This document shows, piece by piece, positions 9,369-17,354 of a stretch of DNA of 64,000 nt (position 1 is its first letter; each line of letters begins with the position of its first letter). The notes under the pieces are model-generated. The model made no database searches and was not told the DNA's origin. It saw nothing but the letters and a program-made list of their open reading frames with translations. The DNA comes from an uncultured Gemmatimonadales bacterium (GTDB lineage Bacteria > Gemmatimonadota > Gemmatimonadetes > Gemmatimonadales > GWC2-71-9): NCBI GenBank assembly GCA_963748815.1, contig CAVVKJ010000008.1, positions 151,102 to 215,101 on the forward strand, given 5' to 3'. Made by a program: the position numbers and the translations under genes.

Positions 9369-10664
9369 ATGCTGACGATCCCAGCCGGACGACGGGCAGC
9401 CGTCGTCGCCGGCATGCGGACTCCCTTCGCAAAGAGCGGCACGGCGCTCAAAGACGTCAACGCAGTCACCCTGGCCCGCCACGCCACGAAGGAACTGCTC
9501 TACCGGATGGACCTGTCGGGCGCCGAGGTGGACGAAGTCATCTTCGGGCAGGTCATCCCCTCGGTCCTGGTGCCCAATCTCGCCCGCGAAGTGAGCCTCC
9601 TCCCCCAGTTTCCCAAGACCATCCCCGCCTACTCCCTCAACCGCGCCTGTGCCTCCGGTGCGCAAGCCGTCGTCAACGCCGCCGACCAGATCATGCTTGG
9701 ACGGGCCGATGTCGTCGTCGCCGGCGGTGCCGAATCGCTCTCCGACATCCCGATCCTGCATTCCCGGCGATTCAGCGCGCTCCTGGTCGAGGCGAGCAAG
9801 GCGCGGAGCCTCCCCCAGCGACTCGGCGTCCTGTCCCGGGTCAGGCCGCGGGACCTCGTGCCGGTCACCCCCGCGATCGCGGAGCCCTCCACCGGTGAAT
9901 CGATGGGGCAGTCCGCCGAGAAGATGGCGCAGGAAAACGGCATCCGGCGGGAGGACCAGGACCGGATCGCGCTGTTGAGTCACCAGCGGGCCGCCGCCGC
10001 CACGGCCGATGGTCGCCTCACCGCGGAAATCGCCCCCTGGTTCGGGGGCCGCGGGATGGACGACATTCTGGCCAGCGACAACGGCATCCGCGCCGACACC
10101 TCGCTGGAGGCGCTGGCCAAGCTCAAGCCCGTCTTTGACCGCCGGTACGGGTCGGTCACCGCCGGTAACGCCTCGCCGTTGACCGATGGTGGCGCGGCCG
10201 TGGTGATGATGGCCGACGAGAAGGCGCGCGCCCTTGGCTATCGTCCGCTCGCCACGGTGCGGAGCTACGCCGTGGCGGCGGTGGACCCGGGGTGGCAGCT
10301 CCTCATGGGGCCCGCCATCGCGGTGCCCCGCGCCCTCGAGCGCGCCGGGCTCACCTGGAACGACCTCGGCCTGGTCGAAATTCACGAGGCATTCGCGGCG
10401 CAGGTCCTGTCGAACGTGCAGGCCTGGGGCTCGAAGGCGTGGGCCGATCGCCTCGGCCTTCCCGCTCCGGTGGGTGAGGTCAACTGGGACATCACCAACG
10501 TGCTCGGCGGCTCGATCGCGATCGGGCATCCCTTCGGCGCCACCGGCGCGCGGATCGTCACCACCCTTGCGAACGAAATGCAGCGCCGGGACGTCCAGTT
10601 CGGGCTGATTTCCATCTGCGCCCAGGGCGGGATGGGGTTCGCCATGGTTCTGGAGCGCGCATGA
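9369..10664 (+). CDS. fadI: Acetyl-CoA C-acyltransferase (3-ketoacyl-CoA thiolase)
   Basis: NRACASG, EIHEAFAAQVL, GHPFGATG, CAQGGMG; coupled to fadJ. Confidence 0.92.
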   Translation: MLTIPAGRRAAVVAGMRTPFAKSGTALKDVNAVTLARHATKELLYRMDLSGAEVDEVIFGQVIPSVLVPNLAREVSLLPQFPKTIPAYSLNRACASGAQAVVNAADQIMLGRADVVVAGGAESLSDIPILHSRRFSALLVEASKARSLPQRLGVLSRVRPRDLVPVTPAIAEPSTGESMGQSAEKMAQENGIRREDQDRIALLSHQRAAAATADGRLTAEIAPWFGGRGMDDILASDNGIRADTSLEALAKLKPVFDRRYGSVTAGNASPLTDGGAAVVMMADEKARALGYRPLATVRSYAVAAVDPGWQLLMGPAIAVPRALERAGLTWNDLGLVEIHEAFAAQVLSNVQAWGSKAWADRLGLPAPVGEVNWDITNVLGGSIAIGHPFGATGARIVTTLANEMQRRDVQFGLISICAQGGMGFAMVLERA

Positions 10665-12803
10665 GCACCTTTACCGTAGTCGAGGAGCAGGGCGTCGCCG
10701 TCGTCTCCATCGACCAGCCCGGTTCGCCGGTCAACGTCCTCACCGCCGCCGCCAAGTCGGAGTTCGAGACGATCCTCGAACGGCTCCGCGAGGACAAGGC
10801 GGTCCGCGCCGTCGTGCTCATCTCGGGGAAACCCGACAACTTCATTGCCGGCGCCGACATCGAACAGTTCGTGGCGCTCCCCAACCAGGCCGCCGCCGAG
10901 GCGCTCTCGCGCGACGGCCAGGCCACGATGGATCGGGTGGCCGACTTCCCGAAGCCGATCATCGCGGCGATCCACGGCAGCTGCCTCGGGGGCGGGCTCG
11001 AGCTCGCGCTCGCCTGTCACTATCGGCTCGCCACCAACCATCCGAAGACGCAGCTCGGCCTGCCCGAGGTGCAGCTCGGCATCCTGCCCGGCGCCGGCGG
11101 CTGCCAGCGCCTGCCACGCCTCATCGGCGTGCGCGCCGCCCTCGACATCATTCTCGCCGGCAAGTCGGAACGCGCCGCCAAGGCGTTCAAGCTCGGCATG
11201 GTGGACGAACTGGTGCCGCCGCCGCTCCTGCGCAGCGTCGCGCTCGCCGCCGCGGTGCGCCTGATGTCCTCGGGCGCCCCCCGGCGCGCCCGGCGGGGCG
11301 GCGCCGCAGGGTTCCTCCTCGACGGCAACCCGCTCGGACGAGCCCTCGTCTACCGAATGGCCCGGAAATCGGTGCTGGCCAAGACGGGCGGACACTACCC
11401 GGCGCCGCTCGCGGCGCTCGCGGCGGTCCGCACCGGGATGGAGCGCGGCATGCGCGCGGGGTTCGTCGATGAACACCGCCGGTTCGGCGAACTGGCCGTC
11501 AGTCCCGTCTCCCGGAAGCTCGTGCAGATCTTCTTCGCCACCACCGCCCTCAAGAAGGACGACGGCGTGGCCCCCGGCACCGCCACGCCGCGACCCGTCC
11601 GGCGCCTCGGTGTGGTCGGGTCGGGATTCATGGGGGCGGGGATTGCCGGCACGGCGGTGGCCCAGGCCGGGGTCGAGGTGCGGATGAAGGACGCCGACCT
11701 CGCGCGCGTGGGGAAAGGGCTGAAGGCCTCGACCGGCATCCTCGACGGGCGGCTCAAGCGCCGCCGCATCACCCGGCAGGAACACCAGCGGCTCTCGGCG
11801 CTGCTCAGCGGGGCGGCGGACTTCACCGGGTTCCCCCGCACCGATCTCGTCATCGAGGCGGTGTTCGAGGACCTGACCGTCAAGCGAACCGTCGTCGCGG
11901 AGCTCGAGGCGACGGTCGGCGACGCAGGCGATCATCGCCACCAACACCTCCACCATTCCAATCACCGACATCGCCGCCGGCGCCCACCACCCTGGGCGCG
12001 TGCTGGGGATGCACTTCTTCAGCCCGGTGGATCGGATGCCGCTCCTCGAGGTCATCCCCGGGGCGGCCACCGCGCCGGATGCCATCGCCACCGCGGTGCA
12101 GTTCGGGCGGCGGATGGGGAAGACGGTCATCGTGGTCGCCGACCGCCCCGGCTTCTGGGTCAACCGGATTCTCTCGCCCTACCTCAACGAGGCGGGGCAC
12201 CTGCTGATGGAAGGCACCCCGATCGAGGCGATCGACCGCACCATGACCCGATTCGGCTTCCCGGTCGGCCCGATCGCGCTGCTCGACGAAGTGGGGCTGG
12301 ACGTGGCGGCCAAGGGTGGCGGCGTCATGCACCAGGCGTTTGGCGAGCGGCTGACTCCGGCCGACGCCATCGGCAAGATGCTGGCGGACAACCGGCTCGG
12401 CCGGAAGAACGGCCGGGGATTCTACCGCTATGAGGGAGGGAAGAAGGCCGGGGTGGATCATCCGGTGTACCGGCTGCTTTCCATCACGCCGTCCGATCGC
12501 GTCAGCCCGCACACGATCGAGCAGCGCCTGATTTACGCCATGTTGAACGAGGCGGCCATGGCGGCGGGCGAGGGCGTGGTGCGTTCGCCCCGTGACGGCG
12601 ACATCGGCGCGATCTTCGGGATCGGCTTCCCGCCCTTCCGCGGCGGCCCCCTCCGGATGATCGACGACCTCGGCGCCGCGCAGGTGGTGTCGACGCTGCG
12701 GGCGCTGGCGGCCGAATTCGGCCCGCGGTTCACACCCGCCGGCTCCCTGGTGGCGATGGCGGAGTCGGGCGGCAGGTTCTACGAGGAAACGAGTTCCCGT
12801 TGA
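10661..12803 (+). CDS. fadJ: Fatty acid oxidation complex alpha subunit; +1 frameshift near 11921-11927
   Basis: Enoyl-CoA hydratase domain (FIAGADI, GLPEVQLG), GSGFMGAGIA; continues in another frame as AIIATNTSTIPI...GMHFFSPV; ORFs 10661..12433 and 12000..12803. Confidence 0.9.
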
Positions 12804-12826
12804 TTCACTCACACTGGAGTTTGGTC

Positions 12827-14401
12827 ATGCGCAAACTGTGCTTGTTCGCGTTGCTCGGGGCGTTCTTCGCTCCCGTGACATCCGCCTGGGGGCAGGGGTT
12901 CAGCTCCAACGATCCGATCATCAAGCGAATCTGGGCCATGGGGATGGACAGCTCCCAGGTCGGCGCGCTCGCCCAGGTGCTCGACGACTCGATCGGTCCG
13001 CGGCTGACGGGCTCGCCCGGCATGAAGTCGGGCAACGACTGGCTCGTCAAGACGTACGCGCGGTGGGGCATCGGCGCCGAGAACGTCCAGTACGGCACCT
13101 GGAAGGGATGGAAGCGCGGCGCCAGCCACATCGACCTCGTCGCGCCCCGCGTGCGCTCGCTCGAGGGGATGATTCTCGCGTGGAGCCCGGGCACCAAGGG
13201 GAAGCCGGTCGACGGTCCGGCCGTCATTCTCCCGGATGCCGCCGATTCGGCGGCGTTCGCCTCCGCGATCGCGTCGGTCAAGGGCGCCTACGTCCTGATC
13301 AGCGCGCCGGAACTTACCTGCCGGCCCGACTCGAGCTACAAGGAGTCGGCGCTGCCGGAGGAGTTCGACCGGATGGTCAAGGAGCGCGACGAGTACCGGG
13401 CGGCGTGGGCCGCACGGGTGAAGCGCACCGGGTTGAACAACAAGGCGCTGCAGCTGGCGCTCCAGGGCGCCGGCGCGAAGGGCGTGCTCACCAGTAACTG
13501 GTCACGGGGATGGGGCGTCTTCCGGGTGTTCGACGGCAAGACCACCGAGGTCCCGGCCGCGGTGCTGAGCTGTGAAGACTACGGGCTGGTCTTCCGGCTC
13601 GCGGAGAACCGGCAGGGGCCGGTGCTTCGGGTGACCGCCGACGCGCAAGACCTGGGCGAGGTCCCCGTGTTCAACACCATCGCCACGATCCCCGGCACCG
13701 ACCGGGCGGGTGAATACGTCGTGCTGTCCGCCCACTTCGACAGCTGGGACGGGTCCTCCGGCGCCACCGACAACGGCACCGGCACGGTCGTGATGATGGA
13801 GGCGATGCGCATCCTGAAGGCGGTCCTCCCCCGTCCGAGCCGGACCATCATCGTGGGGCACTGGAGCGGCGAGGAGCAGGGGCTGAATGGCTCGCGGGCC
13901 TACATGGCCGACCACCCGAAGGTGGTCGAGGGGCTGCAGGCCCTCTTCAACCAGGACAACGGCACGGGGCGGGTGGCCTACGTGAGCGCCGCGGGGCTGA
14001 TGGAGGCGGGCGGCTTCCTGGCGGACTGGTTCTCGAAAGTGCCGTCCGAGATCACCGGCAACTTCAAGGCCTTCTCGGTGCCTGGCACCCCGGCGGGCGG
14101 CGGCTCCGACAACGCCTCGGTGGCCTGCTATGGCGCGCCGGGCTTCGGCCTCGGCTCGCTGCCCTGGGAGTACTTCTCCTACACCTGGCACACCAACCGC
14201 GACACCTACGACAAGCTGGTGATGAGCGAATTGCGGAACAACGCGACGCTGACCGCCATGCTCGCGTACCAGGCGGCGCAGGACCCGAACACGATCCCGC
14301 GGGACCGCCGCGTGATGCCGATCAACTCGCGCACCGGTGAGCAGCAGACCTGGCCGGAGTGCCAGCCCGCGGCGCGGTCGTTCGCGGAGTACACGCGCTA
14401 G
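12827..14401 (+). CDS. Secreted M28 family metallopeptidase (carboxypeptidase Q-like)
   Basis: Signal peptide; SAHFDSWD, GATDNGTG, SGEEQGL, GGSD, WHT-x-x-DTYD; GGAG RBS upstream of ATG 12827. Confidence 0.88.
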   Translation: MRKLCLFALLGAFFAPVTSAWGQGFSSNDPIIKRIWAMGMDSSQVGALAQVLDDSIGPRLTGSPGMKSGNDWLVKTYARWGIGAENVQYGTWKGWKRGASHIDLVAPRVRSLEGMILAWSPGTKGKPVDGPAVILPDAADSAAFASAIASVKGAYVLISAPELTCRPDSSYKESALPEEFDRMVKERDEYRAAWAARVKRTGLNNKALQLALQGAGAKGVLTSNWSRGWGVFRVFDGKTTEVPAAVLSCEDYGLVFRLAENRQGPVLRVTADAQDLGEVPVFNTIATIPGTDRAGEYVVLSAHFDSWDGSSGATDNGTGTVVMMEAMRILKAVLPRPSRTIIVGHWSGEEQGLNGSRAYMADHPKVVEGLQALFNQDNGTGRVAYVSAAGLMEAGGFLADWFSKVPSEITGNFKAFSVPGTPAGGGSDNASVACYGAPGFGLGSLPWEYFSYTWHTNRDTYDKLVMSELRNNATLTAMLAYQAAQDPNTIPRDRRVMPINSRTGEQQTWPECQPAARSFAEYTR

Positions 14402-14428
14402 CGCTCGACGGTCCACCATGACCGCAAG

Positions 14429-14456
14429 ACGAGGCGTCCCATCCGGGGCGCCTCGT
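14429..14456. terminator. Hairpin between convergent peptidase and rho
   Basis: acgaggcgtccc-atcc-ggggcgcctcgt. Confidence 0.6.
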
Positions 14457-14482
14457 GTTGTATTCGAACCCGGGCGAGTCGC

Positions 14483-15613
14483 CTAGCGCGTCAGCGTCGG
14501 GATCAGTTCTTCGTTGGTCTTGGCGCCACGGAAGAGGGAAAGCAGGTCCTGCATCGCGTTGATGGAGGGCATCCCCGCCGTGCGCTGCCGCAGGGCGTGG
14601 GAGGCCGCCAGCGCCTCGGGGGAAAAGAGCAGTTCTTCCCGCCGGGTGGAGCTCGCCGGGATGTCGATGGCGGGGTAGATACGCCGCTCCGCCAGCTCGC
14701 GGCTCAGCACCAGCTCGCTGTTGCCGGTTCCCTTGAACTCCTCGAAAATGACCTGGTCCATCTTCGATCCGGTGTCCACCAGCGCGGTGGCGATGATGGT
14801 CAGCGACCCGCCGCCGCGCGACGGGTCGACGTACCGGGCACTGCCGAGAAAGCGCTTGGGCTTTTCCATCGCGTTGGCGTCGAGGCCGCCGGACAACGTC
14901 CGGCCGGTGCCCCGTTCCAGCGTGTTGTAGGCCCGCGCAAGGCGCGTGATCGAATCGAGGATGATGACCGAATCCCGGCCGAGTTCCACTTGGCGCCGGG
15001 CCCGTTCCAGCGTGAGTTCCGCGACTTCGGCGTGGCGTTCGGCCGGCTGGTCGAAGCTCGAGGCCACCACCTCGCCCGCCCCCGCCATCTCCATCTCCGT
15101 CACTTCCTCCGGCCGCTCGTCGACCAGCAGGATGAAGAGCTGCGCGGCGGGATGGTTGCGAGCGACGCCCTCGGCCACCGCCTGCAGCACCGTGGTCTTG
15201 CCCGCCTTGGCGGGAGCGACGATGAGTGCGCGCTGTCCCTTGCCGAAGGGGCAGAGCAGGTCGATGAGCCGGGTGATTTCATGGGCGGTGCGCCGGGTGC
15301 CGGGGGGCACCTCGAGCGTGAGCATTTCCTTCGGGTGCGTCGCGGGAAGTTTCGAAAATTCGGGGCGCCGCGCGATCTCCTCGGGCGCGAGCCCGTTGAC
15401 CGTGGTCACCTTCTGGAGACTGGGACCGCGCCCCTTGCCGCCACGCCCCCCCTCACCGGCGATTTCATCGCCGGTGCGGAGGCCGTACTGCTTCACGAGA
15501 TGGGGGGGGACGAAGAGGTCGCCATCGGCCGGCGCATAGGCCGATTCACGGCGTCGTATGAAGGCGGTCCCGCGGTCCGTCAGTTCCAGGATGCCCAGGA
15601 GGGTATCGCTCAC
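14483..15613 (-). CDS. rho: Transcription termination factor Rho, short form (376 aa)
   Basis: GILE..AFIR RNA-binding domain, [55 protein letters not shown] start overlaps upstream TGA (GTGA). Confidence 0.93.
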
Positions 15614-16041
15614 TGCGCCCCGGCGTCCCAGGAATCCCACGTCAGATGACAGCGTGTCACGAAGTACTCCGGCGGATGGCCTGTGCGCTCCAGCAAGTCG
15701 TGGAGCATCTCGTGGCGAACGACCATTTCGTTCCCCACGTAGGCGCCGGCGATGGTGATCCGGGAGACGTTGCCGACCCGCTCCCAGAGACCCACCTTCT
15801 CGCCGATGCTCGTCTCGAAAGTAGCGACGTCGGGCACCACATACCACTCGATGCCCTCCATCGCGCCGCGCAGCTCGGCGCACGCCTCGGTGCGGGCGTA
15901 CCAGGTGGCATACTCGGCGGGAGCGGTCATCAGGACGGCGCCCTCGGGGGGGGCGCTCGGTTCGAGGCCGGTGCACGACGCCGCGACCAGCCAGATGGCC
16001 ATGACGGGTACGAGGCGATGGGGAACGGATGCTGGGCGCAT
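15610..16041 (-). CDS. Small lipoprotein with HExxH zincin-like motif
   Basis: Signal peptide ending VAASC; VRHEMLHDLLERTGHP; GGAG RBS at 16047-16050. Confidence 0.75.
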   Translation of the reverse strand: MRPASVPHRLVPVMAIWLVAASCTGLEPSAPPEGAVLMTAPAEYATWYARTEACAELRGAMEGIEWYVVPDVATFETSIGEKVGLWERVGNVSRITIAGAYVGNEMVVRHEMLHDLLERTGHPPEYFVTRCHLTWDSWDAGAQ

Positions 16042-16126
16042 GGTGTCTCCACAACGCCCGATAAGCTCAAGGCCATGGGATCGCTTTCCCGGAGGGAAGG
16101 GTGTCCTGGCCCCGCTTCTCTGCCTG

Positions 16127-16216
16127 CCTTCGGCACCGAGCTATCTCCGGCCCATTCGGGCCTGAGACCTCAAGTTTTGCGGCCCCGGATCACTCCGGGT
16201 GTGCTCTTATCGGGCG
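16127..16216 (-). ncRNA. GEMM-I (cyclic di-GMP-I class) riboswitch, A20 variant (possible c-AMP-GMP sensor)
   Basis: Minus strand CGAUAAGAGC-ACA-CCCGGA-GUGA-UCCGGG-GCC-GC-AAAA-CUUGAGGUCUC...GAGAUAGCUCGGUGCCGAA matches the GEMM layout (P2 with GNRA loop, GCAAA junction, P3, GCCGAA); recognised by eye, no covariance search run. Confidence 0.82.
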
Positions 16217-16418
16217 GGTCGTTGGTGGACTGCGGAAGGGGTAGAACGCAAGTCCGGGGCCGACCAGCCCCGAGATGGCCTAAGTTGAACAGGCGGCTCC
16301 GCTTAGCCGGGGTGATTTGTCCGGAACTTGTTGTCCTGACATAGTTTAGGTAGCTTCGTGGCGATGCCCGGGCGCGCCGCCCAGGCCGCTATGGACCCCC
16401 GTCGAGGGACACCTGCTG

Positions 16419-17354
16419 ATGATGCGCACCTTCCTACTGTGGCTGTCGGAGCAACAGGGTGTGTTCAACTTCCTGCGGCGCAATGGCCTCGCCCGAAAGT
16501 TCGCCAGCCGCTTCGTGGCGGGGGAAACACGGGAGACCGCCACGGCGGCGGCGCTCGAATTGAAGACCCTCGGGATCATGACGACGCTGGACCTCCTGGG
16601 GGAGAGCGTCAACCTGCCGGCCGATGCGATCGCGGCCCGCGACGAGTACCTGCGCATGCTCGACGGGCTCGCCGCCAGCGGCGCCGACATCAACGTGTCG
16701 GTCAAGCTCACCCAGATGGGCTTCGACATCGACGAGGCGCTCTGCCTCGACAACATGCGGCGCATCCTGGCCAAGGCGCGCGACCTCGGCGGCTTTGTCC
16801 GCCTCGACATGGAGAGCTCGGAATACACGCAGCGCACTCTCGATTTCTTCGAGCGGCACCTGCTCGCCGAGTTCGGCAGGCACACTGGCGTCGTCATCCA
16901 GTCCTGCCTCCGCCGCTCCACCGCGGATGTGCAGCGGCTCATCGGGCTCGGCGCGCGGGTGCGCCTCTGCAAAGGGGCCTACCTCGAGTCCCCCGACGTC
17001 GCCTTTCCGGACAAGAAGGACGTGGACCGGCAGTTCATCGCGTTGATGGAGGACCTCCTCCGGCACGGCAACTATCCCGGCATCGCCACGCACGACAACC
17101 GGATGCTCGAGCATGCCCGGGCCTTCGTGACCCGTGAGGGGATTCCGGCCGACCGCTTCGAGTTCCAGATGCTCTTCGGCGTGCGGCGCGACCTGCAGGA
17201 GCGACTCCGCAAGGACGGCTTCAACATGCGGGTGTACATCCCGTTCGGCACCCAGTGGTATCCGTACCTGATGCGCCGGCTCGCCGAGCGCCCGGCCAAT
17301 ATCGTCTTCATCTTCGGCAACGTGGTTCGCGAGACGCTCGCCTTGAAGGGTTGA
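16419..17354 (+). CDS. Monofunctional proline dehydrogenase
   Basis: SRFVAGE, SVKLTQMG, VRLDMES, RVRLCKGAY, ATHD, YLMRRLAERPAN. Confidence 0.92.
   Translation: MMRTFLLWLSEQQGVFNFLRRNGLARKFASRFVAGETRETATAAALELKTLGIMTTLDLLGESVNLPADAIAARDEYLRMLDGLAASGADINVSVKLTQMGFDIDEALCLDNMRRILAKARDLGGFVRLDMESSEYTQRTLDFFERHLLAEFGRHTGVVIQSCLRRSTADVQRLIGLGARVRLCKGAYLESPDVAFPDKKDVDRQFIALMEDLLRHGNYPGIATHDNRMLEHARAFVTREGIPADRFEFQMLFGVRRDLQERLRKDGFNMRVYIPFGTQWYPYLMRRLAERPANIVFIFGNVVRETLALKG

Follow-up and report, generated by a model that had tools for sequence, protein, structure and literature searches.

The DNA analysed here, a stretch of 64,000 nucleotides from an uncultured Gemmatimonadales bacterium (the window), carries a GEMM-I leader with A where the Vc2 riboswitch has G20, which raises the question of what ligand this A20 aptamer senses and what it controls. 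The initial annotation, made from the letters of the DNA, had read the leader as a cGAMP-type riboswitch with a translational expression platform, in a lineage from which no such system was known to the annotator. Judged by comparison with its relatives, the element is a genuine, conserved A20 GEMM-I riboswitch in Gemmatimonadales. The whole explanation put forward here, namely, a lipoprotein-rho2 operon driven by sigma54 and controlled by a translational A20 riboswitch, seems to us somewhat probable on balance. Our literature search for GEMM-I, cGAMP, or c-di-GMP riboswitches in Gemmatimonadota gave no paper on this system among the records listed, in agreement with the annotation; the main text of PMC5473149 does not name the phylum, and its supplement may list Gemmatimonadota.

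The covariance model of the c-di-GMP-I riboswitch (RF01051) matches the leader over model positions 1 to 87 with 53.8 bits against a gathering threshold of 35 (E = 1e-7), and this is the sole Rfam match within the window. In the alignment, A16205 stands opposite the initial G of the GGC consensus. The published numbering of Gs1761 (G8..A14, A41, and G74-C75-C76; PMC7288161 and PMC6274999, excerpts) translates into G16211..A16205, A16178, and G16134-C16133-C16132 here; because the two registers agree, the binding triad is A20/A47/C92 at 16205/16178/16133. The aptamer thus has the A20 of GEMM-Ib RNAs together with intact A47 and C92, and it lacks the G20 that marks high-affinity selective c-di-GMP binding. 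The pair beside the pocket, G16204-C16179, is a Vc2-like G-C and not the C15-G40 of Gs1761. The GEMM-I call, the A at the G20 equivalent, and the annotated GUGA tetraloop (16193-16190) and GGUCUC/GAGAU P3 were all borne out.

A20 is present in all 33 aptamer copies of the genus (17 genomes), so that base 16205, which the annotation had wanted confirmed, is not a sequencing error. The base is also unchanged in a contig of run X3 from an independent study (15955-16260), whose sole difference lies at 16230, and in a contig of X2 that shows 0 differences; two short X2 contigs carry one difference each, at an unlisted place. These X2 and X3 sequences are assembled contigs, not raw reads. The P2 tetraloop is GUGA or GCGA across the genus copies. 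RF01051 matches were found in 74 of 101 genomes of the order and in 16/16 genus relatives. A scan with a pattern derived from the aptamer returned at least 120 stretches, and 56 of the 80 listed are from Gemmatimonadota, a proportion biased by a pattern built from this RNA.

Features of the riboswitch locus within the window (positions count from the first letter of the window)
Feature	Position	Strand	Basis or remark
sigma54-type promoter, GG-N10-GC (GG 16261-16260, GC 16249-16248)	16248..16262	-	
P1 5' strand and J1/2; anti-P1 partner in the ligand-free fold	16206..16216	-	
c-di-GMP-I (GEMM-I) aptamer	16129..16215	-	RF01051, 53.8 bits; two-sided changes in distal P3, 17 orthologues
A, selectivity position equivalent to G20	16205	-	RF01051 alignment; register per Gs1761 numbering
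GUGA (GYRA) tetraloop of P2	16190..16193	-	RF01051 alignment
A47 equivalent, intercalating base	16178	-	RF01051 alignment
C92 equivalent, intact; partner of ligand guanine	16133	-	RF01051 alignment
Linker hairpin, places anti-P1 beside aptamer	16063..16117	-	Length-variable; two-sided changes, 17 orthologues
Anti-P1 strand CUUAUCGGGCG	16055..16065	-	Invariant in 16/16 genus copies; two G-U-preserving changes in G044
GGAG ribosome-binding site (RBS)	16047..16050	-	4 bases from helix; ATG at 16041
GCGCCC at start/first codons; alternative partner of anti-P1 (16059-16054)	16034..16039	-	Inferred
Predicted lipoprotein, 143 aa; HExxH plus third His, minimal zincin-like fold	15610..16041	-	Lipobox read from sequence
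Second Rho (rho2), 376 aa, without N-terminal helical domain	14483..15613	-	Pfam Rho_RNA_bind and ATP-synt_ab

The annotation had also described an 11-nt complementarity between the 5' strand of the aptamer and a segment ending 4 nt before the GGAG. The match of 16216-16206 to 16065-16055 is exact (11 bp), and neither the 11-mer nor its complement is found elsewhere in the 3.16-Mb assembly. Two-sided changes affect 10 of 61 consensus pairs among 17 sequences, the linker hairpin and distal P3 being the parts that vary. In the ligand-free fold, the P1 5' strand pairs with anti-P1, and the helix extends through GUUGUGG as far as the leading G bases of the RBS; in the consensus fold with P1 enforced, anti-P1 pairs instead with GCGCCC, enclosing RBS and AUG. 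No terminator was seen in the leader of the window. With a conserved anti-P1 and this RBS/AUG hairpin option, the annotated translational platform gains support, and translational control is very probable.

The second pairing recurs beyond this leader. For the lipoprotein-rho2 locus of the genus (locus A, 16 copies), a complement of at least 5 bp to anti-P1/SD was found at the start codon in 13/13 distinct copies (2.2 expected from 2276 genome starts); complements of at least 6 bp were found in 9 of 14 copies of the other genus locus (locus B, 17 copies in total; 0.8 expected) and in 16 of 29 from other genera (1.9 expected), counting only copies with an anti-P1-like segment before a GGAG. The changes on the two sides are matched (for example, GCGUGG/CCACGC, GUGUGG/CCACAC, and GGCAUGGG/CCCAUGCC). 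Because the pairing of anti-P1 with the first codons encloses RBS and AUG, an OFF switch is favoured, and we regard this direction as fairly likely. Without ligand, the anti-P1 strand would capture the P1 5' strand in an 11-bp helix; ligand would stabilise P1 and free anti-P1, which could then pair with the first codons and form a hairpin over RBS and AUG, so that less of the zincin-like lipoprotein would be translated and, through coupling, less of the short second Rho.

An ON switch, in which the ligand-free anti-P1 helix and its extension would block ribosome loading until ligand frees the RBS, is a tentative alternative that we consider unlikely. It draws on the reach of the ligand-free pairing through GUUGUGG to the RBS and on the mean unpaired probability of the SD, which is greater with P1 enforced in 16/16 locus-A copies; against it stand the recurrence of the anti-P1 complement, with matched changes, at the start codons of unrelated downstream genes and the absence of a net gain in opening energy. 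The energy of RBS opening, bound minus free, is -0.1 +/- 1.8 kcal/mol for locus A (16 copies) and +0.4 +/- 1.8 kcal/mol for locus B (17 copies); equilibrium folding of the whole leader gives no separation of the two states. Compared with synonymous-codon controls, the locus-A hairpin has no excess stability (-15.8 versus -15.4), and a modest excess was seen elsewhere (14/14 locus-B copies above the control mean stability and 19/29 from other genera). A search for the longest Watson-Crick pairing of the 5' strand with sequence farther downstream (226 aptamers) was set aside as too crude beyond close relatives, among the results listed, and its G-U-allowed version stayed near background.

Upstream of the aptamer lies a GG-N10-GC element, which we take to be the sigma54 consensus, and transcription would start near 16236-16233. 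Such an element precedes 33/33 genus aptamers and, in other genera, 30/36 A20 and 5/49 G20 aptamers (three aptamers in the promoter and GYRA tallies are from G125), versus 0/93, 0/108, and 3/144 control windows (3/345 in total); the kin genomes behind these counts are not independent. The source genome (G000) encodes RpoN, and a sigma70 promoter scan of 14300-16600 gave 0 sites. Use of this sigma54-type promoter is highly likely. Our literature search for sigma54-riboswitch coupling found no paper on such a system among the records listed. Two similar TGTC..GGA/GACA elements, a candidate regulator site, lie in the intergenic region near 16315-16345, and a divergent proline dehydrogenase gene occupies 16419-17354 (plus strand).

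The first gene behind the leader encodes a predicted lipoprotein with 196 homologues, the named ones being from Gemmatimonadota. Residues H110, E111, H114, and H122 are invariant in 80/80 aligned sequences. No known family was found in Pfam or Atlas, and a Foldseek search with the structural model (pLDDT 88.2) gave nothing at E<=0.001; the best fold match, a weak one, is abylysin (Z 6.2, rmsd 3.7, 84 residues). The protein may be a small, zincin-like surface peptidase.

The second gene, rho2, can be aligned with residues 53-414 of E. coli Rho and shares 50% identity with the main rho at G000:C10:1155500. Its GTG start overlaps the lipoprotein stop (GTGA), an arrangement kept in 16/16 genus copies and in genome G044. 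Most genomes of the family have two rho copies; G035 has two equal-scoring short ones (G035:C8:6683-7723 and G035:C4:477056-478096) besides its main rho. The link of aptamer and lipoprotein also occurs outside the genus (for example, loci L084, L288, and L290), and this genus and G044 were the only places where the lipoprotein-rho2 junction was seen. Neither the lipoprotein nor the aptamer pattern occurs at 26 other rho2 loci. The lipoprotein gene is upstream of rho2 at 4 of 30 loci, 3 of these in this genus. A riboswitch over rho2 as a family trait was rejected, an Rfam match being present in 1 of 20 non-genus rho2 loci. Our literature search for Rho paralogues in Gemmatimonadota gave no paper on this system among the records listed. 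One contig of RNA run X13 covers 15748-16051 and none covers the aptamer; such contigs are mute on start, strand, and level. A G+C-rich hairpin (14429-14456) separates rho2 from the converging M28 peptidase gene (12800-14401), beyond which a multifunctional fatty-acid oxidation gene (10661-12803, plus strand) is split into frames 10661-12433 and 12000-12803, probably by an assembly frameshift.

The annotation had advised a search for other A20 aptamers in the genome, which turned up one, at G000:C5:308472-308556, before genes for STAS, receiver, and ABC ATPase proteins. This locus (L002, G000:C5:308472-311470) also has a sigma54-type promoter and the same design of anti-P1/start-codon hairpin, and it includes two membrane genes that resemble ccmB/ccmC by eye. 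The STAS-locus A20 is kept across two families, even where a genome uses G20 elsewhere, and one orthologous STAS-locus aptamer is G20 (L031). At another locus (L079, genome G069), a sigma54-type promoter and an A20 aptamer directly precede a GGDEF gene of the Asp type, an arrangement that may form a feedback loop. G20 aptamers stand before genes for pilin-like, Ig-domain, and outer-membrane-barrel proteins (L032, L303, L306, and L309), unlike most A20 copies.

We surveyed 201 genomes of the order with DNA patterns, which miss variants, and related genomes are not independent; the tallies include the unpublished genomes G030, G125, G137, and G249, on which no conclusion hangs. In these genomes the Hypr pattern occurs in 38, A20 in 55, and G20 in 71. 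A20 and the Hypr pattern coincide in 4 of the 55 A20 genomes (10.4 expected; Fisher p 0.009, overstated by kinship) and, within the family, in 4 of 43 (11.4 expected); A20 itself occurs in 42/86 family genomes. True Ser GGDEFs account for 29 of the 30 Hypr loci fetched, and canonical Ser-type Hypr GGDEFs (Ser; Tyr or His at the cross-dimer site; GGDEF) occur in other Gemmatimonadales (L234-L263). Many genomes with the Hypr pattern have G20 or no pattern-detected aptamer.

What, then, does the A20 aptamer bind? The annotation had treated the GYRA loop with a GUCUC-type P3 as a GEMM-Ib signature. The comparison does not support this: GYRA loops are carried by 35 of the 49 G20 aptamers from other members of the order, 25 of them with a GUCUC-type P3. 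The loop seen here is not diagnostic of GEMM-Ib, and the literature excerpts available gave no supporting passage for GYRA with a helical receptor as such a marker. Position 20 is described as a selectivity factor and not a hard filter (PMC9262584, excerpt). In PMC6140456 (excerpt), Vc2 G20A has affinities of 120 nM for cGAMP and 53 nM for c-di-GMP, and bispecific binding is also reported for several natural GEMM-Ib RNAs. The pair beside the pocket in Gs1761 is C15-G40, and its weight for selectivity is a second-hand statement in the excerpts available. A bispecific pocket (c-di-GMP and 3',3'-cGAMP), or else c-di-GMP as the ligand, seems rather likely. In most A20 genomes the signal would most likely be c-di-GMP, with A20 as a lower-affinity setting. 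Evidence against a c-di-GMP or bispecific ligand comes from the STAS-locus A20, retained in two families despite G20 elsewhere.

The search for Hypr GGDEF and CD-NTase genes, also proposed in the annotation, gave no Ser/Thr-type Hypr or SMODS match. No Ser/Thr Hypr GGDEF was found among 12 GGDEF matches in the source genome (86% complete) or among the 28 read of 29 matches in G001, G008, and G012; the Hypr DNA pattern was found in 0/5 genus relatives and SMODS CD-NTase (PF18144) in 0/17 genus genomes. A relaxed Ser/Thr pattern, run on the 17 genus genomes, was set aside because its matches were by eye mostly chance or out of frame. In five sister-family A20 genomes (95-100% complete), the GGDEF matches number 40: the strongest 29 have Asp without exception, a weak one that was read is degenerate, and ten weak ones are outside the count. 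Of the cGAMP signalling that the annotation had proposed, the A20 aptamer stands, and selective cGAMP binding leans negative given the lack of Hypr and SMODS matches and the Vc2-like G-C pair.

The source genome does encode one cyclase candidate, a GGDEF protein (G000:C5:397490-397960) with a 4Fe-4S, Fe-hydrogenase-like sensor domain. Its sites were assigned from the GacA spacings 304/339/348/374 (PMC6456294, excerpt), which it fits, and from a PleD alignment: it has Asn at the Ser348/Asp344 site, Phe at the Tyr304/Arg site, and the GGDEF motif, that is, a non-Arg cross-dimer residue with GGDEF and not GGEEF. Among 37 such Fe-S GGDEF domains, picked from the GGDEF and pattern matches and all with the GGDEF motif, the selectivity residue is Asn in 35 and Ser in 2, and the cross-dimer residue is Phe/Tyr in 35 (two by eye), Val in 1, Leu in 1, and Arg in 0; the Ser/Tyr orthologues are those of G057 and G128. 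In a tree whose outgroup consists only of the genus's own Asp enzymes, the Fe-S GGDEFs form one clade (100/97) adjoining a Ser-type clade (98/90). The Asn GGDEF pattern occurs in 75/86 family genomes versus 2/87 of the sister family and therefore cannot serve all A20 aptamers; no full-length Fe-S GGDEF was found in the five sister-family A20 genomes. A membrane HD-GYP gene (RxxR; G000:C5:399828-400331) lies about 2 kb from the Fe-S GGDEF gene.

On the degradation side, 2 of 5 HD-GYPs in the source genome have RxxQ (C8:120627-121127, with a receiver domain, and C10:90546-91037), a signature of cGAMP phosphodiesterases (bioRxiv 10.1101/600031, excerpt). The RxxQ pattern is found in 177/201 genomes of the order and 86/86 of the family, and being nearly universal, it is not specific to A20 genomes. 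The HD-GYP with the receiver domain carries Glu at one site that is usually an acidic Asp. Production of cGAMP by a GGDDF enzyme has been described, but that enzyme has Ser (PMC8835794, excerpt); the GGDDF protein of the source genome has Asp at the selectivity site.

Taken together, the RxxQ phosphodiesterases and the Asn/Phe GGDEF keep cGAMP in play. A circuit in which the A20 aptamer would be cGAMP-selective, the Fe-S GGDEF a Hypr-like synthase, and the RxxQ HD-GYPs the enzymes that degrade the signal is, as read from these sequences, rather doubtful. It would account for A20 in every genus copy, for the GacA-like spacing without Arg at the cross-dimer site, for the adjoining Ser-type clade, for the RxxQ motifs, and for a Ser/Thr Hypr pattern in 38 of the 201 genomes. 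It fits poorly with the depletion of A20 where Ser-type Hypr is present, with Asn GGDEF and RxxQ patterns that do not track A20 within the family, with the lack of SMODS in the genus and of a candidate synthase among the domains read in the five sister-family A20 genomes, and with the Glu in the receiver HD-GYP; our literature search found no tested Asn-type cGAMP synthase among the records listed. A20 showed no positive co-distribution with Ser-type Hypr, where it is depleted, or with Asn GGDEF and RxxQ, each present in nearly all genomes of the family. The broader proposal of a Gemmatimonadales cGAMP circuit, in which the Asn/Phe 4Fe-4S GGDEF would be a new synthase class, RxxQ HD-GYPs would erase the signal, and sigma54-coupled A20 riboswitches would read it, is unlikely. 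If it were true, A20 switches would shut off translation of the STAS-receiver-ABC operon and, in this genus, of the surface zincin and second Rho, and redox state would thereby be tied to termination by Rho.

A different dinucleotide as ligand, such as c-di-AMP or a linear product, would agree with the finding that no synthase class co-distributes with A20, but it is very improbable. Binding of c-di-AMP has been reported to need G20A/C92U, and the intact C92 argues against it; no DAC domain was found in the source genome at 86% completeness, and the triad matches characterised RNAs. We give practically no credence to a sequencing error or non-functional relic, for although assembly frameshifts occur elsewhere (the GGDEF genes on C17 and C10 of the source genome are split by them, and probably the fatty-acid oxidation gene too), 17 genomes and independent contigs all retain A20 and the platform, with compensatory changes across orthologues.

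Our findings add an order that is abundant in the environment to the range of A20 GEMM-I riboswitches (55/201 genomes sampled), and in this order A20 does not follow the known cGAMP synthase. The order is a clean test case for two readings of A20, as a predictor of cGAMP sensing or as no more than a tuner of c-di-GMP affinity. The Asn/Phe GGDEF is noteworthy because its orthologues switch to the Hypr Ser/Tyr pair. The RxxQ candidate list of bioRxiv 10.1101/600031, available in excerpt, may include Gemmatimonadota. It would be unusual for a second messenger to control a second Rho through such a switch, and the gene order is local to two genera. The analysis adds features that the initial annotation did not mention: a conserved promoter of the sigma54 type, a rival hairpin over RBS and AUG, a second Rho coupled to the lipoprotein, phosphodiesterases with RxxQ, and the GGDEF with Asn/Phe.

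Compared with Vc2 (RF01051), a translational OFF switch acting via P1 (PMC9262584, excerpt), the aptamer shares a fold above the gathering threshold, A47, C92, and the G-C pair beside position 20; it differs by its natural A20, its GYRA loop with a helical P3, its sigma54-type promoter, and a linker hairpin and anti-P1 with a competing RBS/AUG hairpin. With the Geobacter GEMM-Ib RNAs (Gs1761, Gm0970, and pilM), it shares A at position 20 (A14) and the A41 and C75 equivalents, whereas it has G-C in place of C15-G40, a translational platform with no terminator seen, no Ser-type Hypr GGDEF in the genus genomes searched, and other regulated genes. The Fe-S GGDEF resembles GacA, GSU1937, and Bd0367 in its GGDEF motif, aromatic non-Arg cross-dimer residue, and non-Asp selectivity residue; as read from sequence alone, it differs by Asn versus Ser/Thr (35/37) and by its Fe-hydrogenase-like 4Fe-4S sensor. 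Like abylysin, selecase, and jannalysin, its best fold matches (Z 5-6), the lipoprotein has HExxH and a third His; unlike these minimal zincins, to which it is 8-18% identical with Z values within the range of a common arrangement, it bears a lipoprotein signal. Finally, rho2 resembles the Type 4/group B Rho proteins (PMC11347177, excerpt) in being a second copy with no N-terminal domain and an intact ATPase domain, and it differs from those described there by its position downstream of a riboswitch, found in only this genus and G044.
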